NCBI RefSeq assembly: GCF_004010195.1
Contig: NC_057758.1
Coordinates: 2,644,216-2,677,351 of the forward strand
DNA length: 33,136 bases
DNA from: Chiloscyllium plagiosum
Taxonomy: Eukaryota
Direction of reading: 5' to 3'
In this document: positions 3,131 to 33,136 of the stretch, in pieces
Layout: the number at the start of each line of letters is the position of its first letter
How positions within the stretch are numbered: the first letter of the stretch is position 1
Position numbers and translations under genes: made by a program
Notes under the pieces: generated by a model
What the model was told of the DNA's origin: nothing
Databases searched by the model: none
Seen by the model: the letters and a program-made list of their open reading frames with translations, nothing else

Positions 3131-3202
3131 TGGGAGGGTCAGTGTGGACTTATTGGGCCGAAGGGCCTGTTTCAACACTGTCGGGAATCTAATCTAATCT
3201 AA
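3131..3202 (+). mobile_element. HE1 SINE / partner-LINE 3' tail fragment inserted in Gypsy A
   Basis: GGGTCAGTGTGGACTTATTGGGCCGAAGGGCCTGTTTC...GGGAATCTAATCTAATCTAA matches the reverse complement of the tails at 20472 and 20796. Confidence 0.85.
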
Positions 3203-6200
3203 TGGTGCTCTCATTTCCTGCCCAAAAACAAATTCAAATGGTCTGAGTTTGGTTGATTCATTTGGTACATCTGTGATCGCAAAAAGGACAAACAGAATTC
3301 CCTTATCCCAATCATCTATATTGTCCTGGAAATAAAGCTTCAACATGGTCTTTCGTATTTGATGTCACCCTTCTTGGGCTCCCTGTGATTCTGCATAGCA
3401 TGAACTAGACTTGAATTACTTTATGCCTAAGCGTTCCACAACTTCATTTAATTCTAGTTTACCTTGAGCTGCCTGTATCTGCATTGACAGCCCGGATATA
3501 ATTTTAAAAAGTAATTCCTCTACAATAATTTTAGTTGTGGTATTGTGTAATGGAACTGACTCTGTAAATCTCGATGATACATCCATTGTTGTTAACAAAT
3601 ACTGATTCCCCACTTCTTGTTTTAGGTACAGGACCAATGCAATCAATTCAGACTCTTGAAAATGGTTCCAGAAATGCTGGAATATGTATTAAAGGTGCAG
3701 GTTTTATTACTGCCTGTGGTTTTCCACTTACTTGACCTGTATGACATATCTGGCAAAAATTCAACTTCATCCTTGAACAGTCCAGGCTAGTAAAACAGTC
3801 CTTGTATTTGAGCCTGTGCTTTCTTCACTCCTAAATGACCTGCAAGTGGTAACTCATGCGAAAGTTGCAAAACCTTACTTCTGTGCTCCACTGGGAATAC
3901 GATTTGATCAAATTCTGCACATTTCTCATCTGCTTGAATATGTGATTGTGTCCATTTCCTTACTATGATATAATTGTTTTTAAGTAATAACACGCAGACT
4001 CCTTCTCTGTGCATATATAGCTGTTTTAAATTTTCATGTTACTGCTGCAACTCAATAAGTTTTGCAGAGCTAAAGGTATTTGCATGATTATTTAGTTGCT
4101 CCTGATTCGTCTCAACTAACCAATCGAACACAGTCTCTACGAAAGCCACTTCACCTTCCTTATGCGCAACATTTGATCTCTCCTCCTCAAACTGGTGACT
4201 CTGTGACCTCGGTACTACACAATCAGGGAAAATCCCCCGAAAACAAACATGCATTATTGCAGTTACTTGATACTCCACTAGCTTCTCAATTATAGTAGGT
4301 AGTACGCTGACGGGTGAATCCGCTGTATTCCAGACAATTCATATTCCAAGAGCTGAGAGTTTGTCCAGTATTCCTAACAGACATTTTCCACACTTTTTTG
4401 GAGATTCCATTTCATTTTACATAATTGAGTGCTTTTTATCCCGCCATAAATTCTTGTTAGCATTTCCTTTTCTGGCAATAGTCTTTCTGGAGTACATATC
4501 TCCTCATCCTTCAGTATCACAGGCTGAGAGGACCCTGTTACCCTTAATATTACAACCGCTTTGTCTGCTATCCCTTGCCTATGTGAATACAATTTGTCTT
4601 TGCAAGGATACTTTTTAAGCAGATCTGGCGCTTCCTCCTTAACCAACTTCCAATCAGGTTGCACGCTCTGATTCAGCTTTCCACCTTACACTGTACTTTC
4701 TGTTATCATCCCAGCAAAACTTCCAGGCTTATCCTGTTTTCCCACGTAGGGTTTTCCTGTGCTTTTTCCAGTGTACCAACACTGTGATTTTTAGTGACCT
4801 ACTATATTACAACGAAAACACCAGAGCTTTTTATCTTTTCTGTCTCTTTCAACGGTTTCATTTTTAACCTCTGGTGAGGTTCCCTTATGATCTTCTCTGA
4901 GATCTACCTTTCCCTTTCCATGTGACGATTTATCTTTTCCCCAATTTTTAGCCTTCACGTACCGAAATTCATTTGGAAAACTAAATTGCGGTTTTATGGA
5001 CCAGCTCATAATCATCAGCCACTTCAGCTGGTATCCTTGCTGGTATCCTATCATATCTGCTTATCCACATGAGTTCCCATTATGACAAGCAGCGAATGTT
5101 TGAGCTCCTCCAAAATACTTGCCTCTCTAAGAGCATCATGAGTTTACTCTATTCTTAAAGCTCTGATCCACCTACCAAAATGACTTTGATCCTTTCAAAC
5201 TCGACATAGGTTGAACGAGAGCCTCTCCTTAGATTCCTGAAACGTTGTGTATCTGCTTCTGGTACAAGCACAAATGCAATTAGGACTGTTTTCTTCAGCT
5301 CCTCATAGTCCCCAAATACTTCCTCTGATAAGGATGTGAATACCTCACTTGCTCTACCTCTATGTTTGGTCTAGATCAACAAAATGCTCATGGTTACTGG
5401 CCTTTGCACTTGTTTAGCGACTTTTACAAATGAGATGAAAAAGACTTCCACGTCCTTCTCATCATAACTTGGCAAAGTTGGAACATACTTAAGCAGTTTT
5501 TCATCAGACTTTTGACTATTAGTGGCTTGCTCATCCTCATGCATTGCCTTACTGAGCCTACGTTCAGCAGTCATTTCCAACCTTTTAATCTGACTTTCCT
5601 TTTTAAGTGTCAATTTCTAAAGTTCAAGCACTCTCTTTTTTTCTTCCTCTTCTGCTTTTAATCGTAGGTCAAAGTGTTTAATTTCTGCTTCTAATTGAAG
5701 CTTCTTCATTTGTAACTGAACATAGAACATTGAACAACATAATGCTGAACAGGCACTTCGGCCCTTGATGTCGCATCAACCTGCAAACTAATCTAAGCCC
5801 ATCCCCCAACACTATTCAAACGTCATCTATATTCTTATCGAAGCACTGTTTAATGCCTCTAATGTGGCTGGGTTAACTACATTGGCAGGCAGGGCATTTC
5901 CCACTCTTACCATTCTCTGAGTAAAGAGCTGCCTATGAAATCTGTCTTAAATATATCACTCCTCAACTTGTAATTTTGCCCCCTCATACAAGCTGATGTA
6001 ATCATCTGAGGAAAAAGACTCTCACTGTCCTCCCGATCTAATCCTCAGATCATCTTGTATGTCTCTATTAAATCATTTCTAAGCCTTCTTCTCTCCAATG
6101 CGAACAGACTCAAGTTCTTCTGCTTTTCCTCATAATACCTTCCTTCTATACAAGGCAACATCCTGGTAAATCTCCTCTCTACCTTTCTCCAATGCTTCCA

Positions 6201-21070: not shown

Positions 21071-22393
21071 AAAATTTAATCTAATCTAATAATGGAAAAA
21101 ACTCTCAGCACCGGAAATACAATTTGTCCTCAGTAATGATGTAGTTCAGTCAAAAGTCAGATTGTTTGAAAAATCTGCGGAAAATTAGGCAACAGATGTA
21201 TTACACGAAACATATCCTGGGCTTTCTTCTTGACTGTGTGGCAATAAATTGACAAAGTCACCAGTTGAAACAGGAGAAGAAATCAAAGAATACAGACAAA
21301 GAAGTTGATGTAAAATTCTCAGAAGCCATGTTTGATCAAATGTTTGAGACAAACCAGGAACAAATGGAGAATAGCTCGATATTTTGAGCTCAGAGAATTT
21401 AACTAAGTTTCAAAAGAATGATGAAAACCTGAAACAATTTTATCAAGAAACCTGCACAGGAGAAAAATCTACGTCTTTCCCTGAATGCGACTATCTTAAA
21501 AATGAATTCGTGATGAGGAAATTAATATGATCACACATTCAGCAAATGAGGAATGGACAGAAGTTCATCAAGTTGTATTAGAAGAGGGTGCAGAAAGGAA
21601 ATGTTGCGGTTAGCGCATGAATAATGAGCAGGAGCACATTTACGTAGCATTCAAATTAAAATACAAAAACTGACCTCAAATGCTCAAGATGCAGTTGAAT
21701 TTTGTCAAGTACATCAAATAAGGAAAACCGGAGGTAGAAATTACACCTTTAATACCTGTTCCTGAATTGGAAGAACATTCTTCAAGAGTCTGAATTGATT
21801 GTCTACCGAAAAGATAAAGACGCAATCAGTATGCGTTAACAGGAATGAATGTGTCTGCGAGATTCCCAGAAGCAATTCCATTATGCAATATTACAGTTAA
21901 ACAATTGTAAAAGAGTTACTCCAATGTTTCACTATATACGGACTGCTCACAGAGAAACAATCAGATCAAGGGTCATTAAAATTATTCAGGGAATTAATGG
22001 ATAGCTGAGGAATAAAACAATTCGACTCCACTGCGTACGATCCAGAATCGCAGGGAACGTTAAAAAACATGGCATCAGACATTAAAGATCATGATTAAGG
22101 ATTACGTTCAAGACTAACTAATTGATTGGGATATTGGAATTCCATTTGTAATTGTTGCCATTCCAGTTGCACCAATTGTATCGACCAAATTCAACCCATT
22201 TGAATTAGCTTTTGGGAAGGAGGTGAGAGGACGACTGAAACTAATTGAGGGGAATATGGTGAGTCAGAAGTTATAGAGCAAATATTTGTCCTAAAATTTG
22301 GGCAAATTTTTGGGGAATTGCTAAATAGATCAGGGGTATTTGCTGTGCAATAACTAATAATATTACAGAAGATGATGAAATAGGAAGCAGATT

Positions 22394-26316: not shown

Positions 26317-28605
26317 GAGTTCAAAAAGATCAAATAAAGTAACTGTGATAGGTAGATTAGGGCAATAAAAACAAAGCAAAACTATGACGCACTTAGAGCA
26401 ATGCTTACTTTGGTGGAGATCAAAATTTCACCTCCTGAAGTATTGAGCAATCGTGTGGAAAAGCAGAGAGTTAAAACGGCGCAATTAGCAGTGGAAATGG
26501 CTGAGCATTAAGAGTTGGTTCATAAATTAAAGTTTGGCTTCTCACATCAATTTCAATCCATGAAGGATAAAAATTTGGAAAAAGATGAAATGCTCACATC
26601 GTAATGAAAAGATAAATCTTGGTGAAATCACATGGATAACTTACAACAACGGAAAAAGAAAACTCTTACACGGGAATAAGGAGCCTAAAAAGCTGCGGTG
26701 TTTTCACTTCACTAAGGTAGACAGCATGAAACCATAATGTTGGTGGGTTAGAAATAGCACTGCAAAGCCAAGTTCAGGAAAACAAAATTAGCCAGTGACT
26801 TTTGTTGAAGTGGTAACAGAAAGTACAGTGGAGTCTAAAACCCTACACCACAATGTACAATTTGTCGGAGAGGCGTGAAGAAGGAACTGCCAGATATTAT
26901 TAAACTGTAGACCTACTTTCAAAAGTAAACTGTATTCACATAAGCCAGGAGCAGCACCTAAAGAGGTTGCAATGTTAAGACATAGAGGATTCTCACAATC
27001 TTTGATGTTGAAAGATGAGGACATATGTACCACTGAAAGACTGTTGCCAGAAAATGTGCTCGTAACGGGAACTAAGACTGAGAGAAGATGTGCTCAATTG
27101 TGTAGAATGAGATTAGAGGAGCCAGCGAAAGGTGAAAATGTCCCAGTAGGACTACGGGGCAAACTCTCAAGTCCACGAATGCAATTAGTTCTTTCTAACC
27201 AAGTAGCTGGTTCACAGATAGGAGTGCTGCCTCCTATTATGGAAAAGCCAGTTGTATACCGCAGGCAATTGAGGTATTGCAGGAAGCATATCTTCGGATT
27301 TTTTCCTGACTGTATGGTAATGAATTCACAAAGGTACCAGTTGAAACAAGAGAGATCAAAGAATACAGGTAAGAAAATTAAAGTGGAATTACCAGGTACA
27401 CTGTTTGATCAGATGGTTGAGATAAAACAGGAGGAGATACATGACAAAGCAGACATCTTTATCTCTGGAACATTAACCGAGTTACAGTTGAAAGATGAGA
27501 AAATAAAACGTTAGTATCAAATAGAAGAAGAACATAGATGCACTCTGGTGCACTGCTATCTGAAAAATGATGTCTTAATAAGAAAATGAAGGCCATTATA
27601 TATTCAGGCAGAAAGTAAATGGGCAGAGGTTCATTAAGTCGCATTGCCAGTGAGTTACAGAAAGGAGTAGTGCATGATCTACGATTAGGAGGTCATTTAG
27701 ACAAAAGAAAATCTCAAATAACACTTTTCTTACTGGCCTGTTCTGCGTAAGGATGTAGTGGATTTCTTTTTCTCCAGATAGACAAGTAATTGGAAAACGC
27801 GGGCAGTATTAAAACCAACAACTTTAATACCTATTCCTACGTTAGAAGAACATTTTCCAAGAGTCTTATTGACTTCCTCGGACCTATAACTAAAACAAAA
27901 AATGGGAGTCAGTTTGTGTTAACAATAATGGATTTGCACGTTAGATTTTCAGAGGCCATTCCATTCCGCAATATTCAAGCTGAAACTAACATAGAGGAGA
28001 TTTTCAAATTTTCCACTACATACGGACTACTAACAGAGATCAACTGTCAAGAATTACACCAAAATTATTCTAGGTAGTTATGGACAGATAAGGATTAAAA
28101 CAATTCAAAAATATTGTGTTCTGGCCAGAAATGCAGGGAGCCCAAGAAAAGTGGCATCAGATATTCAAGACGATGTTCATAACTCATATTTAAGACTATT
28201 CAGATGACTGAGACATTGGAGCTCCGTTGGAATTTTTTCCATCAAAGAGGCACCGAATAAATACCATGTTTAGCCCATTTGAAATAGTTTTTGGGAATGT
28301 AGCAAATGGAACAATAAGCTTGATTATGGAGAAATTAAGTCGTAATTCAGAGGCCACATATTTGGGCAGTGTGTCAAATTTACGAAGTAATTAAATAAAC
28401 TGGTGGAGTTGGCGAGAAACGTTTTAAAGATATCAAAGCGTACAATGAAACAGGAAGCAGGCATGAAATCAAAAACTCCTCAATTTTGCTATCGGAGATA
28501 AGGTGTTAGTGCCTCTTCCAATGGTCAGTGAACCATTAATAACAAGGAGCAGTGGACATTATCAAGTCGAAATGAGATTGATTGAGGTGAACTATTTCAT
28601 AAGGA

Positions 28606-28732
28606 TCTGAAGAAGGGCTTATGACCGAAACATCGATTCTCCTGCTCCTCGGAGGCTGCCTGGCCTGCTGTGTTTTTCCAGCACCACATTTTTCAACTCT
28701 GGTACTCCAGCATCTGCAGTCCTCACTTTCTC
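28606..28732 (+). mobile_element. Short Penelope-terminus/MER6-like element, 14-bp TSD
   Basis: TCTGAAGAAGGGCTTATGACCGAAAC...CAGCATCTGCAGTCCTCACTTTCTC. TSD CTATT(T/A)CATAAGGA at 28592-28605 and 28733-28746. Confidence 0.85.
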
Positions 28733-28772
28733 CTATTACATAAGGACTCCAGACAGAAAGAAATCTCACAGA

Positions 28773-30430
28773 GCTCAGTAAGATTTGTGAGGCACGACTT
28801 ACCCTTCACAAAACCGTGCTGAATATGCCTATCCAACTTGTTACTCCCACGATGATTATAAATGCTATCATTTATAAACATTTCCAACACTTTATGCATA
28901 ACCGTAGTAATGCTCACTGGTCTATAATTACCAGGATTGTCTCTCCTCCCCTTCTTGAACAAGGGGACAACATTTGTTTCCTCCATTCTTCTGTAAATAT
29001 TCATCTAGAAAACAACAACATAAAGATCAAAGACAAAACATCTGCAATCTCCTCCCTGACTTCGGAGAAATTCCTACGATATATCCCTTCCATCCCAGAG
29101 ATGTACCTATTTTCACAATTTCCAGAATTGTTAGCACCTCCTCAACAATATTGTCTTTGTCCAGTGTGAATACTGACGAAAAATATACATTCAGCGCTTT
29201 CCTATCGCTGAAAACTCCACTGCTGTCCTTGATTGGCCTTAATCTTTCTCTCGCCATTCTTTTTATTCCTGGTATACTTATAGAAAGCTGAAGAATTTTC
29301 CTTGATCCAACCTGCCAACGACTTCTCCCGACCCTTCCTGTCTCTTCTAAACTGTGTCTATAAGCCTTTCCTGGTTAACTTTTAACTCTCCAGCACCCGA
29401 AGTGAGCCTTCATGTCTTTTCCAAACGTAAGCTTTCTTCTTCCACTTGTGAAAATATTCAACTTCTTTCGCAAGCCACTGCGCCCTCGCTCGACCACTTC
29501 CTCCCTACCTGTCAGGTACATACTTATCAAGCACTCGCAGTATCTATTCCTTGAATATACTCCAAATGTCAATTGCACCCATTCCCTGCAGCTTTCTTCC
29601 CATTCCTTTGCATCCTAAATATTGCCTAATCCTATCATAATTGCCTTTCCTCCAGCAACAACTCTTGCCCTGTGTTATGTATCTATCCCTTTCCATCGCT
29701 TTAGTAACCATAACTGAAATGTGGTCATTATCACCAAAGTGCTCATCTACCTCTAAATCTAACACCTAGCCAGGTTCATTAACCAGCTCCAAATCCAATG
29801 AGTCTTCACTCCTTGTCGGCTTGTCTACATACTATGTCAGAAAATCATCCTGTACATTGGACAAAAATCTGACCCATCTGAAGTACTGAAGTTCCAATTA
29901 ATATTAGGAATGTTAAAGTCCCTGGTAACAACTACCCTGTTACTCTCGCTCCAAACCAGAATTATCGTTGCTATACTTTCCCCTACATATATCGAACTAT
30001 TCGAAGGCTACAGAAAACACACAATAGGGTGACCTCTCTTTTCCTGTTTCGAAACTCTGTCTGGACTACCTCAGTAAATGAGTCCTCAAATTTCTTCATG
30101 CTACCATAATATTGTCCTTGACTAACAATGCCACACCTCCCCCTCTTTTACCTTCTTCTCTATTCTTTTGGAGACATCTATGTCCTCGAACTTTCAACAA
30201 CCATTCCTTTCCCTGTTCTATCCATGTCTCCGAAATGGCCATAACATCGAAGTCCCAGGTACCAACCCATGCTGCAAGTTCAGCTACCTTGTTCCACATG
30301 CTCCTGGCGTTTAAGTACTTTAAACCACCTACCTGCTTGTAGGTGAAATCTTGCGATCTTGAAACCATATTTCAGACCTCACTACGATCAATCTCCTGGA
30401 CATGGAGCCGCAGTTTTAGTTCCCATACCC
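28773..30430 (-). mobile_element. CR1 ORF2 fragment (EN to RT N-terminus), decayed
   Basis: YLNARSMWNKVAELAAWVGTWDFDVMAISETW, GGGVALLVK, NVVPLFKKG..PGNYRPVS, QHGFVKGKSCLTNL. Confidence 0.9.
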
Positions 30431-30444
30431 TGTTGACGACATTT

Positions 30445-31132
30445 TCTTCTAGATGTAGGTTTCCTCGCTGAGCTGGAAGGTTCATTTCCAGACTTTTCCT
30501 CACGCTACTAAGTAACAACCTCAGTGGGCCTCCGGGCAAAACACTGGTGATAATTCCTTCTTTCTATTTATATGTTTGGGTATCTTTGGGTTGATAATGT
30601 CATTTCCTCTGGTGACGTCATTCCCTGTGGGTTGTCGACAGCGTCTAACTCGATGTGTTGACAGGGTTCCGGTTGGAATGCCATGCTTCTAGGAATTTTC
30701 GTGTGTGTCTCTCTTTGGGTTGTTCTAGGGTGGATGTGCTGTCCCAGTCGAAATGATGTCCTTCCTTATCTGTATGTACGGATACTAGTGAGAGAAGGTC
30801 TTGTCGTTTTGTGGCTAGTTGATGTTCATGTATCCTGGTGGTTTGTTTCGTGCCTGTTTGTCCAATGTGTTTGTTACAGTCCTTGTACGGTATTTTGTAA
30901 ATGACATTAGTTTGCTCGTTGTCTGTCAAGTATTTCACGTCCACTAGCTGCTGTTTTAATGTGTTGGTGGGATTGTGGGCTACCATGATGACAAGGGGTC
31001 TGAGTAGTCGAACAGTGATGTATAGGAGAGTGGCTATGGTTTCTGGGCATGTTTTGTCTGGCTGTTTGGGTTTGTTGCTGAGAAATTTGCGGGCTGTGTT
31101 CATTGGGTACACGTTCTTTTTTGAATACTCTG
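30445..31132 (-). mobile_element. Penelope-like element 3' end: GIY-YIG endonuclease plus terminal repeat
   Basis: NVIYKIPYKDCNKHIGQTG..RIHEH..HFDWD..RKFLEAWHS; degenerate hammerhead-like core at 30491-30524. Confidence 0.88.
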
Positions 31133-32351
31133 TATAGGTGATTTTCCTCTGCTCTGGACCTATGGCGAGGAGTCAGTGAAATGACTACACAGTGATATCA
31201 ACGTGTTTTATCCCACCATCAGATTTACCATGGGCTACTCTTTAGTATGTGTCTCATTCTTGGACGCATACATCTCCATCAAGGATGGACACCTCAGTAC
31301 CTCACTGTACAACAAACCCACGGATAACCTCAGAATGCTACACTTCTCTAGCTCCCACACTAAATATAATACAACAGCATTCCCCGACGGACAAGCCCTA
31401 TGCATACACAGAATCTTTTTAGATGTAGATGAATGTGACGAACATCTGAAGGTGCTCAAGGATGTCTTCATACACATTGATCTCGAATTTGGATGTGCCA
31501 CTGCGAGAAACCGTAATTTCCACCACAGGAGAAAGACTTGTGGCAAACGATAAGTTACTTTCAGAGAGCCGAAAAACTACACCATGCACTTTACAGCATG
31601 AAATACATTATCGATAAGGATGGGCATCTCGCCAAGAACTTCCCTTTGCCCCCATTTCTCGCCTTTAAACAGCTGCCAATACTTAAGCAGACAATTGTTT
31701 GCAGCAAATGGCCAAGCCTTCAGGACAACATCGACCACAACACCTCACAGCCCTCTCATGTCAACCACTGCAAGACGTGTAACAATGTCGACATGGATGC
31801 CACATTACCCGTGAGGACACCACCCACTGTTTACACAGCAGGTACTCATCCGACTAAGCTGTCTATCTCAATCGTTGCAGGCAAGGCGAGGGCACGGTAC
31901 ATTGGCGAATCCAAAGAGACTTGATTACAGTGGTTGGACGGACATCACGCAACAATCAACAGACAGAGGTGTTCCATCACTGTCATCAGTCAGGGACATT
32001 CGGCATCGGAACTTCGGGTGACCCTCTTCCAAGGTGGACTTCGAGATCGGCAACAAAGCAAAATGGCTGAGCAGATGCTGATAGCCAATTTCGGCACCAA
32101 TTAGGATGACCTCAAACAGGATCTTGGGGTCAGGTCACACTACAGATGACCCCACTACACTATACACTCTGTCTCATACAGGCACACACAGACAGACACA
32201 AGCACACATGCACTCTTACATACTCACACAGTCACAGAGACCCTGCCTCATACACAAATACACATAAAACCCCCCAGACAGCTTTTACACACGCAAACAG
32301 ACGTTCCGTCACGAGCACTCACACGCAGCACACCCTCACATACTCTCTCTA
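31133..32351 (+). mobile_element. Second Penelope-like element: RT C-terminus, GIY-YIG, CA-rich 3' tract
   Basis: YPTIRFTM..VSFLD..LYNKPTDN..LHFSSSH..GQALCIHRI; Cys pair CKTC in the linker; RYIGESK. Confidence 0.88.
32150..32351 (+). repeat. Degenerate (CA)-rich low-complexity tract
   Basis: Mixed CACA/CAGA/CTCA run downstream of the Penelope ORF. Confidence 0.85.
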
Positions 32352-32541
32352 CATAGAACATAGAACATAGAACAATACAGCACAGAACAGGCCCTTCGGC
32401 CCACGATGTTGTGCCGAACATTTGTCCTAGCTTAAGCACCCATCCATGTACCTATCCAATTGCCACTTAAAGTTCGCCAATGATTCTGACTCTGCCACTC
32501 CCAAAGACAGCGCATTCTATGCCCCCACCACTCTCTGGGTA
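32352..32541 (-). mobile_element. 190-bp 5'-truncated CR1, same family as 1-1034
   Basis: The reverse complement aligns to ~845-1034, including the (TTCTATG)3 tail. Confidence 0.93.
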
Positions 32542-33136
32542 GACGTGTCGCGTCTTTTAAGCAGGAACCTATAGTCGTACTCAAAGTTAACAACAAATGG
32601 TATCCTTTTTTAATTGACACAGGAGCTTCAATGTCTTCTGTAAGATCTGACAAAGACTTGCCAATTTCAAAGCAAACGAAGAGTTTGTCTGGTCTACATG
32701 GAGAGAGCAAAGAATATCCACTTTCTCAACATGTTGCTGTTTATTTTCAAGGTTATTCCCTGTCTCATCGTTTTGTAATTACAAACAAAATATCATGCAA
32801 CTTGATGGGACGAGATTTGCTGTCTTCCTTTCAAGTAAAACTTGCATGTTCCCCTGATGGTGTCCAGCTTGATTCTGATTCATACGAACGTCAGCAGTAT
32901 GTATCCACTGAACCACAGTGGTGGTCACTTGATATTAATACCAAAAACTCTGGGGACCACAATACTCTTGCTTATGTCCGAACAGACCAGGATAAAATTC
33001 TTGAAATTTTAAAATTTATTTAATTGGAACCAAATGAACTGTGCAGAATTTGGCCCATGTCATTGGTCCAGAAGGGGAGGCGGAAATATCTCTTCATCTA
33101 TGGAAGCAATCAGCACCTCATATCATTCCAAAAGTT
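32542..33136 (+). mobile_element. pol: Endogenous retrovirus (class I / epsilon-gamma-like) pol 5' fragment: aspartic protease plus downstream domain; runs off the right edge
   Basis: In frame with ORF 32631-33023: EPIVVLKVNNKWYPFLIDTGASMSSV...LSGLHG...CNLMGRDLL, the retropepsin DTG and GRD motifs. Confidence 0.82.

Follow-up and report, generated by a model that had tools for sequence, protein, structure and literature searches.

The window analysed here (33,136 nucleotides of Chiloscyllium plagiosum contig NC_057758.1) ends within a retroviral pol gene, and the question raised by this locus is what is encoded directly behind the retroviral protease and what kind of enzyme it may once have been. 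An initial annotation of the DNA had proposed a domain like those of the 2H phosphoesterases and had drawn an analogy with the coronavirus and rotavirus enzymes that degrade 2′-5′ oligoadenylates (2-5A). Using homology searches, shuffle tests, structural models of natural relatives and the open literature, we consider it probable that the locus is a dead pol fragment of a class I-like endogenous retrovirus (ERV) which carried a 2H domain of the CNPase subfamily, with CNPase-like activity, and that its lineage has the order protease, 2H, reverse transcriptase (RT), RNase H and integrase.

Layout and decay of the locus

The retroviral element starts directly after a very high-copy repeat (Table 1), over which contig depth is 1e5-1e6 vs ~1e2 over the retroviral part. 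A 92% identical copy of this repeat lies at 845-1036 of the window, and we take the repeat to resemble the 3′ tail of a CR1-type LINE. The protease-bearing frame is open from 32490 to 33023 and carries the signatures I-D-T-G (32613-32624) and G-R-D-L-L (32808-32822); its protease matches retroviral proteases in the PDB, and when the protease only was used as query the best matches were skate-lineage proteins. The stretch linking the protease to the 2H domain may contain a protease cleavage site. No gag remnant was found in the window by tblastn with gag-bearing relatives, and Pfam applied to the window ORF identified RVP but no 2H family. The locus is a dead pol fragment, apparently gag-less, and probably derives from a class I-like (gamma/epsilon-type) ERV of a cartilaginous fish. 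One poly-A single-cell run, of which ~2 in 100 was read and which is a very thin sample, had no depth over 32555-33136.

Table 1 Features at the right-hand end of the window
Feature	Position	Strand	Evidence or remark
High-copy repeat fragment	32345..32541	-	Left border of the element; not part of the retrovirus
Retroviral aspartic protease, open frame	32559..32843	+	Pfam RVP, passing the curated cut-off (E 7.1e-12)
End of protease and linker to 2H domain	32844..32912	+	Unbroken alignment with P0001, 39% identity, 147 residues
First part of predicted CNPase-type 2H domain	32913..33006	+	0/1000 shuffles against 4/4 relatives
Frameshift zone	33007..33025	+	Homology leaves the 32490 frame and resumes in the 33008 frame; seen in organism A contigs
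Second part of predicted 2H domain	33023..33136	+	Score 72 against P0001, 50 against P0003; 0/1000 shuffles each

The strings on which the initial annotation relied (GRDLL, PQWWSLDI, H-N-T, IGTK, QSAPHI and the histidine at 33119) all lie where it had placed them. The first part of the domain opens with P-Q-W-W-S-L-D-I at 32913, contains the W-W of the first strand (32919-32924) and reaches the first catalytic motif, H-N-T, at 32958-32966, with a Tyr five residues past the His. The middle residue of this motif is the polar Asn in the window vs Val, Cys, Trp or Leu in 71/71 relatives. This frame ends at a stop at 33021-33023, and the frameshift proposed near 33015 was recovered by homology, which switches frame within the zone given in Table 1 and does so in an organism A contig too. 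The second frame continues with I-G-T-K, a stop (33035-33037) and T-V-Q-N-L-A-H-V-I-G-P-E-G-E-A-E, and further on reads Q-S-A-P-H-I; it contains the second catalytic His, at 33119, and the window ends five codons past it. The third position of the second motif is not Thr or Ser. The 2-nt slip invoked at the second His is not supported: the frame remains in register with P0001 past this His, to the last codons of the window, and nothing there calls for a slip.

The two His codons are 161 nt (53.7 codons) apart vs 180 nt for the 60 codons that separate them in the closest relatives, a shortfall of 19. The same 19 letters were found on comparison with a related copy in an organism C contig (317 letters vs 298 in the window over 32839-33136), and the second part shows two 3-residue gaps against both P0001 and P0003. 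The short spacing of ~54 codons had been put down to a deletion, which holds for these 19 missing bases, but it is mostly a family trait, with relatives spaced 59-69 residues. A large deletion between the motifs was considered and rejected, the shortfall against relatives and the organism C copy being 19 bases.

The frameshift and the stop both fall within 32833-33084, a stretch that an organism A contig reproduces without a gap and with 4 differences, so that they are genuine and not artefacts of assembly. At the stop codon nine contigs, distributed over three runs as 5, 1 and 3, have other letters than the window, and other copies have indels of their own in the contig comparison; the ERV family is multi-copy in organism A and is present also in organisms B and C. 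The decay already recognised in the initial annotation comprises one shift of frame, one stop codon and two small deletions. Two intact H-x-T/S motifs in one open frame are absent from the window copy, which, with its frameshift, stop, deletions and both motifs altered, is unable to make the enzyme.

Homology to Pol proteins of skates and retroviral class

Tripeptides of the form H-x-T/S are common by chance (333 in the 66,268 six-frame residues of the window), so that the motif alone is no evidence and outside support is needed. When 1.84 billion proteins were searched with HMMER, 157 matches reached E <= 0.001, 150 of which were listed. Most of the matches listed cover the protease only, and the alignments of P0001, P0002, P0003 and P0149 reach query residue 170-173, beyond the first His. 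The best match among the 1.84 billion proteins was P0001 (E 3.7e-23), a Leucoraja erinacea protein of 1225 residues with cluster members in Amblyraja radiata. The domains of P0001 comprise RVP, RVT_1, RNase H and rve, and behind its protease lie two H-x-T motifs spaced by 60 residues, the second of them ~70 codons ahead of the RT. Skates are thus the source of the nearest named relatives, at 38-39% identity to the window.

Both pieces of the window align to the post-protease domain of relatives, with 0/1000 shuffles against P0001 and P0003, which agrees with the 2H-type domain proposed behind the protease. The second piece beat 1000/1000 shuffles against P0001 and P0003, 994 against P0149 and 922 against P0005; four other frames were unremarkable, 42 to 997 of 1000 shuffles reaching their scores. 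Judged by sequence comparison, the homology of both pieces to the post-protease domain of relatives is far above chance. A broad, teleost-weighted profile (A2) missed the pieces in whole-window frames and on short segments gave weak scores, with 2/300 and 10/300 shuffles. Word-index protein searches were weak negatives, both among longer proteins with the window ORF (0/421 candidates) and with P0003 residues 85-235 (0/80 candidates). In the ESM Atlas the window ORF retrieved protease clusters only, while the P0001 domain gave leads at 0.80-0.82, including tRNA-ligase CPD, that lie below the trust level. No related loci were found in viral contigs or in the metagenome contigs searched, and neither 15 long relatives nor 15 further ones had a Pfam match to any 2H family.

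The RT-RNase H of P0001 matched p80 chains of the MLV/XMRV type at E 5e-136, against ~1e-53 for foamy virus Pol and 5e-45 for Ty3. Being nearest to the MLV type, it marks the lineage as a class I-like retrovirus and not Gypsy. The Pol order in the skate relative is protease, 2H, RT, RNase H and integrase; this class I-like order together with an MLV-type RT-RNase H was found in the relative P0001 only. An origin of the locus from Gypsy was rejected on the MLV-type RT of P0001, the RT of the locus itself lying beyond the window end.

That there is no 2H domain here at all, and that the region is a linker, chance sequence or part of a Gypsy retrotransposon, would fit with the frequency of chance motifs, the lack of a Pfam 2H match and the position of the RT outside the window. 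We regard this as scarcely credible, since both pieces reach 0/1000 shuffles against relatives, two structural models give CNPase and the RT of the relative is MLV-like. In natural relatives none of the outcomes that would have told against the initial annotation was seen: the two H-x-T/S motifs are kept, a 2H fold is predicted and the RT is retroviral, not Gypsy.

Predicted fold and similarity to CNPase

We utilized models of two natural relatives from different lineages, whose alignments nevertheless have members in common. The model of P0003, a compact relative, was built from 40 aligned relatives (pLDDT 74.9) and, compared with 48,161 chains, gave mouse CNPase as its top match (Z 12.2, rmsd 2.9 over 132 residues), the next 2H protein scoring 7.2; Foldseek on this model agrees with CNPase. 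The model of the teleost domain P0052 was built from 23 natural domains (pLDDT 94.9) and matched CNPase with Z 17.0 and rmsd 3.4 over 169/174 residues, the next 2H enzyme scoring 8.2. Almost all of its top 21 rows were recognisable 2H proteins, and the other 2H enzymes fell at Z 5.7-8.2, including MHV ns2 (7.5), rotavirus VP3 (7.2) and Acb1 (7.6), with AKAP18 (6.5) and the penguinpox cGAMP phosphodiesterase (PDE; 6.1) further down. A profile of the 23 natural domains searched against the PDB identified G-RICH (E 1.9e-4) and mouse CNPase (E ~1e-3), and in the CNPase rows both H-x-T/S motifs are aligned.

In mouse CNPase the cyclic phosphate is bound between the pairs His230/Thr232 and His309/Thr311, with His309 as the residue that activates the water, and the base is sandwiched by Phe235 and Val321 (PMC4643303, in part). 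The β5-α7 loop comprises residues 319-321 (His309+10 to +12) and is followed by helix α7, described as unique to CNPase (PMC4643303, in part). In both models, within near full-length alignments with CNPase, a helix begins 11-12 residues past the second His, as counted by residue distance. Seventy of the 71 relatives have Gly at His2+15, the exception being a mis-picked motif, and 55/71 relatives, as well as the window, have Tyr or Phe at His1+5, like Phe235 of CNPase. The domain is therefore predicted, by the fold and profile of its relatives, to belong to the CNPase subfamily of 2H phosphoesterases; fold and motifs were read from relatives that share 38-39% identity with the window copy, whose own α7 region lies beyond the window end. 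The 2H identity put forward in the initial annotation is upheld for a domain between protease and RT, but the subfamily is that of CNPase, not LigT, AKAP7 or the viral 2′,5′-PDEs.

Vertebrate CNPase, a myelin enzyme, is the best structural and profile match and has in common with the viral domains both motifs, the aromatic residue at His1+5 and, as predicted by the models, a helix past the second motif. The two differ in that the motifs are 79 apart in mouse (His230, His309) vs 59-69, and in that the viral domains are shorter and embedded in a polyprotein. With the identity of the relatives’ domains to CNPase at just 11-17%, the substrate is one that we infer. MHV ns2, rotavirus VP3, AKAP7, LigT, Acb1 and the poxvirus cGAMP PDE also share the 2H fold and two His-x-Thr/Ser motifs, but score Z 4.8-7.6 vs 12.2-17.0 for CNPase, and α7 is given as absent outside CNPase (PMC5283653 and PMC4643303, both in part).

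Poxvirus and phage 2H enzymes raise the alternative that the domain destroyed another immune nucleotide, e.g. cGAMP, and the penguinpox cGAMP PDE and phage Acb1 are indeed among the fold matches (Z 5.3-7.6). An enzyme carried in the virion would moreover be on hand while reverse transcription makes the viral DNA. These Z values are in the general 2H background, well under CNPase, an α7-like helix restricts the site in CNPase, and the penguinpox enzyme matches the profile at only E 0.11 over 27 residues. We consider a cGAMP-like target quite unlikely.

Distribution, motif retention and proposed function

ERV proteins of skates, of many teleosts and of the newt Pleurodeles waltl carry the domain between their protease and RT. 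In alignment A2 the skate-lineage domain lacks ~30 residues that the teleost forms have behind the first strand and ahead of the first motif, and the distance from the protease motif to RT is ~175 residues in the skate lineage and ~235-250 in the teleost forms. P0097, P0135, P0043, P0086 and other protease matches have ~55-75 residues to RT, without the domain. In a rapidly built RT tree with 40 rows, of which 34 have the domain (a biased sample with no named reference viruses), the skate proteins stand apart on a long branch of their own and do not fall in the main teleost 2H clade. The 2H label needs 3 changes on this tree, which is compatible with one origin. Judging from the sequences, the domain appears to have been lost or gained several times among related Pol proteins, and its capture from a host CNPase is plausible. 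P0048, P0051, P0166, P0185-P0187, P0189 and P0190 are domain-bearing ERV Pol fragments named as host genes, Gypsy or a bacterial MAG protein, names which are likely to reflect mis-annotation or host contamination.

There are 58 profile matches among the 150 protease matches listed, 37 of which span both motif columns. Both motifs are kept in 32/37, although 23 of these 32 had been picked for the profile because their motifs were kept, and the unbiased count is 9/14. In a wider set of 201 proteins, skewed by the profile search and by near-copies, 71/76 keep both motifs, at the 59-69 residue spacing given above. The five full-span domains without the motif pair among the matches listed suggest that catalysis is dispensable in some lineages. 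They include P0014 (ENA record, 1343 aa), a full Pol whose 2H-like domain scores E 1e-14 in the profile and has lost both catalytic His; this domain is possibly a non-catalytic variant.

Such cases bear on the proposal that the role of the domain was mainly non-catalytic, a captured CNPase fold serving membrane or Gag binding, for instance as a decoy against host CNP. The host protein binds HIV-1 matrix and inhibits particle formation (PMC7471995, in part), the motif pair is missing from the 5/37 domains just described, one of them in a full-length Pol, and the walleye viruses carry the fold in Env, not Pol. Both motifs are however kept across deep lineages at ~20-50% identity, which indicates selection on catalysis, and some of the motif-less cases may be decayed copies. 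We therefore give a mainly non-catalytic role a low probability.

Matches in BFVD to the teleost model were led by Q2VF30 (E 4e-13), which we take to be a salmon retrovirus polyprotein, followed by the WEHV1 and WDSV envelope polyproteins. The BFVD entries Q9WHI8 (E 5e-10) and A4GTG3 (E 5e-9), both envelope polyproteins of walleye viruses, show the fold. As the fold occurs in walleye Env and in Pol it is present in two different retroviral genes, the window lineage differing from the walleye viruses in carrying it in Pol. That such a domain is known from fish retroviruses, as the initial annotation had stated, is confirmed by PMC9503650 (in part, citing Mazumder 2002), where 2H domains are ascribed to these viruses and to walleye dermal sarcoma virus, and the epsilon-like ERVs of ray-finned fish sometimes encode CNPase (PMC4977317, in part, citing Basta 2009). 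These domains have the same fold, and come from the same virus group, as the family in the window. The closest named relatives are the skate ERV Pol proteins (Leucoraja erinacea XP_055501356.1 and Amblyraja radiata XP_032872649.1), with the same compact domain in the same place; they are open from protease to integrase, unlike the broken window copy, and their 38-39% identity makes the window element one of a separate ERV family. The main text of PMC8672886, on zebrafish ERVs, contains no phosphodiesterase, phosphoesterase or CNP, and the domain goes unmentioned in the first half of PMC4422223, which deals with the ERVs of the elephant shark. In the open-access literature we found no description of the domain in a cartilaginous fish ERV and no assay of any retroviral 2H domain. 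What is new is the compact form of the domain in skate-like lineages, while 2H/CNPase domains in fish retroviruses are already in print.

The range of hosts also bears on the viral analogy drawn in the initial annotation, and so on the reading that the domain was a 2′,5′-phosphodiesterase destroying 2-5A to block RNase L, like coronavirus ns2 and rotavirus VP3. The superfamily and motifs are common to both, ns2 and VP3 do appear as fold matches (Z 5.8-7.5), divergence of the compact skate-lineage form is conceivable, and a working OAS-RNase L pair is reported in a cartilaginous fish (PMC10400998, in part). CNPase nevertheless fits far better (Z 12.2 and 17.0), and the models predict a helix at the position where α7 of CNPase obstructs the side on which a 2′,5′-linked substrate binds (PMC5283653, in part). 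OAS-RNase L is reported to have been lost in ray-finned fishes, Anura and Caudata (PMC10400998, in part), yet the ERV proteins of teleosts and Pleurodeles waltl still keep both motifs, and 2-5A is thus unlikely to have been the ancestral target. Given the predicted α7-like helix and the reported loss of OAS-RNase L in hosts, 2-5A degradation is not retained as the leading function, and we judge it very improbable. The host range, in arguing against this usual explanation, narrows the test of substrate, which can be made directly on the open natural copies in public records, such as skate XP_055501356.1 (domain at about residues 127-265) and teleost KAL6488528.1 (about 121-294).

We favour a CNPase-like activity. 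By analogy with the CNPase structure, the two His-x-Thr/Ser motifs would hold a 2′,3′-cyclic phosphate and the second His would activate a water held by the following helix, leaving a 2′-phosphate and a free 3′-OH on free nucleotides or RNA 3′ ends. From general retrovirology the domain would be made with Gag-Pol and packaged in virions, and might be released by the protease. For its role, we favour a clean-up of the cyclic phosphates that would be left where host RNases cut virion RNA or primer tRNA. More tentatively, such a CNPase-type Pol enzyme, invisible to Pfam, could be packaged across an ancient and widely distributed group of retroviruses of fish and amphibians, where it would clear the 2′,3′-cyclic nucleotides and cyclic RNA ends made from virion RNA by host RNases; we hold this wider proposal to be doubtful. 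Among such products is 2′,3′-cGMP, which has been reported as a TLR7 ligand. If the proposal is true, the clearing of cyclic nucleotides would be a virion-borne route of immune evasion, and the small skate-lineage domain would offer a minimal model for the purpose of CNPase, whose own biological role has been called enigmatic (PMC5283653, in part). The locus itself, a dead fragment, is of little weight, and the wider Pol-borne family missed by Pfam matters more.

A number of other decayed elements were identified within the window. Integrase-like remnants at 3200-3625 (minus) and 21937-22252 (plus), with weak tblastn matches to the integrase portion of related retroviral Pol proteins (E 1e-5 to 5e-8), are probably other LTR elements unrelated to the retroviral locus. 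Short frames at 27790-28400 (plus) resemble, by eye, the integrase of a decayed LTR retrotransposon, with no Pfam match in the one frame scanned. Decayed LINE pieces lie at 28726-30371 (minus), with RVT_1 (E 2e-7) and endonuclease/exonuclease/phosphatase (E 8e-6) matches. Two opposed fragments without a Pfam match, at 30645-31172 (minus) and 31185-32130 (plus), presumably represent the ends of a Penelope-type element, as which they read.
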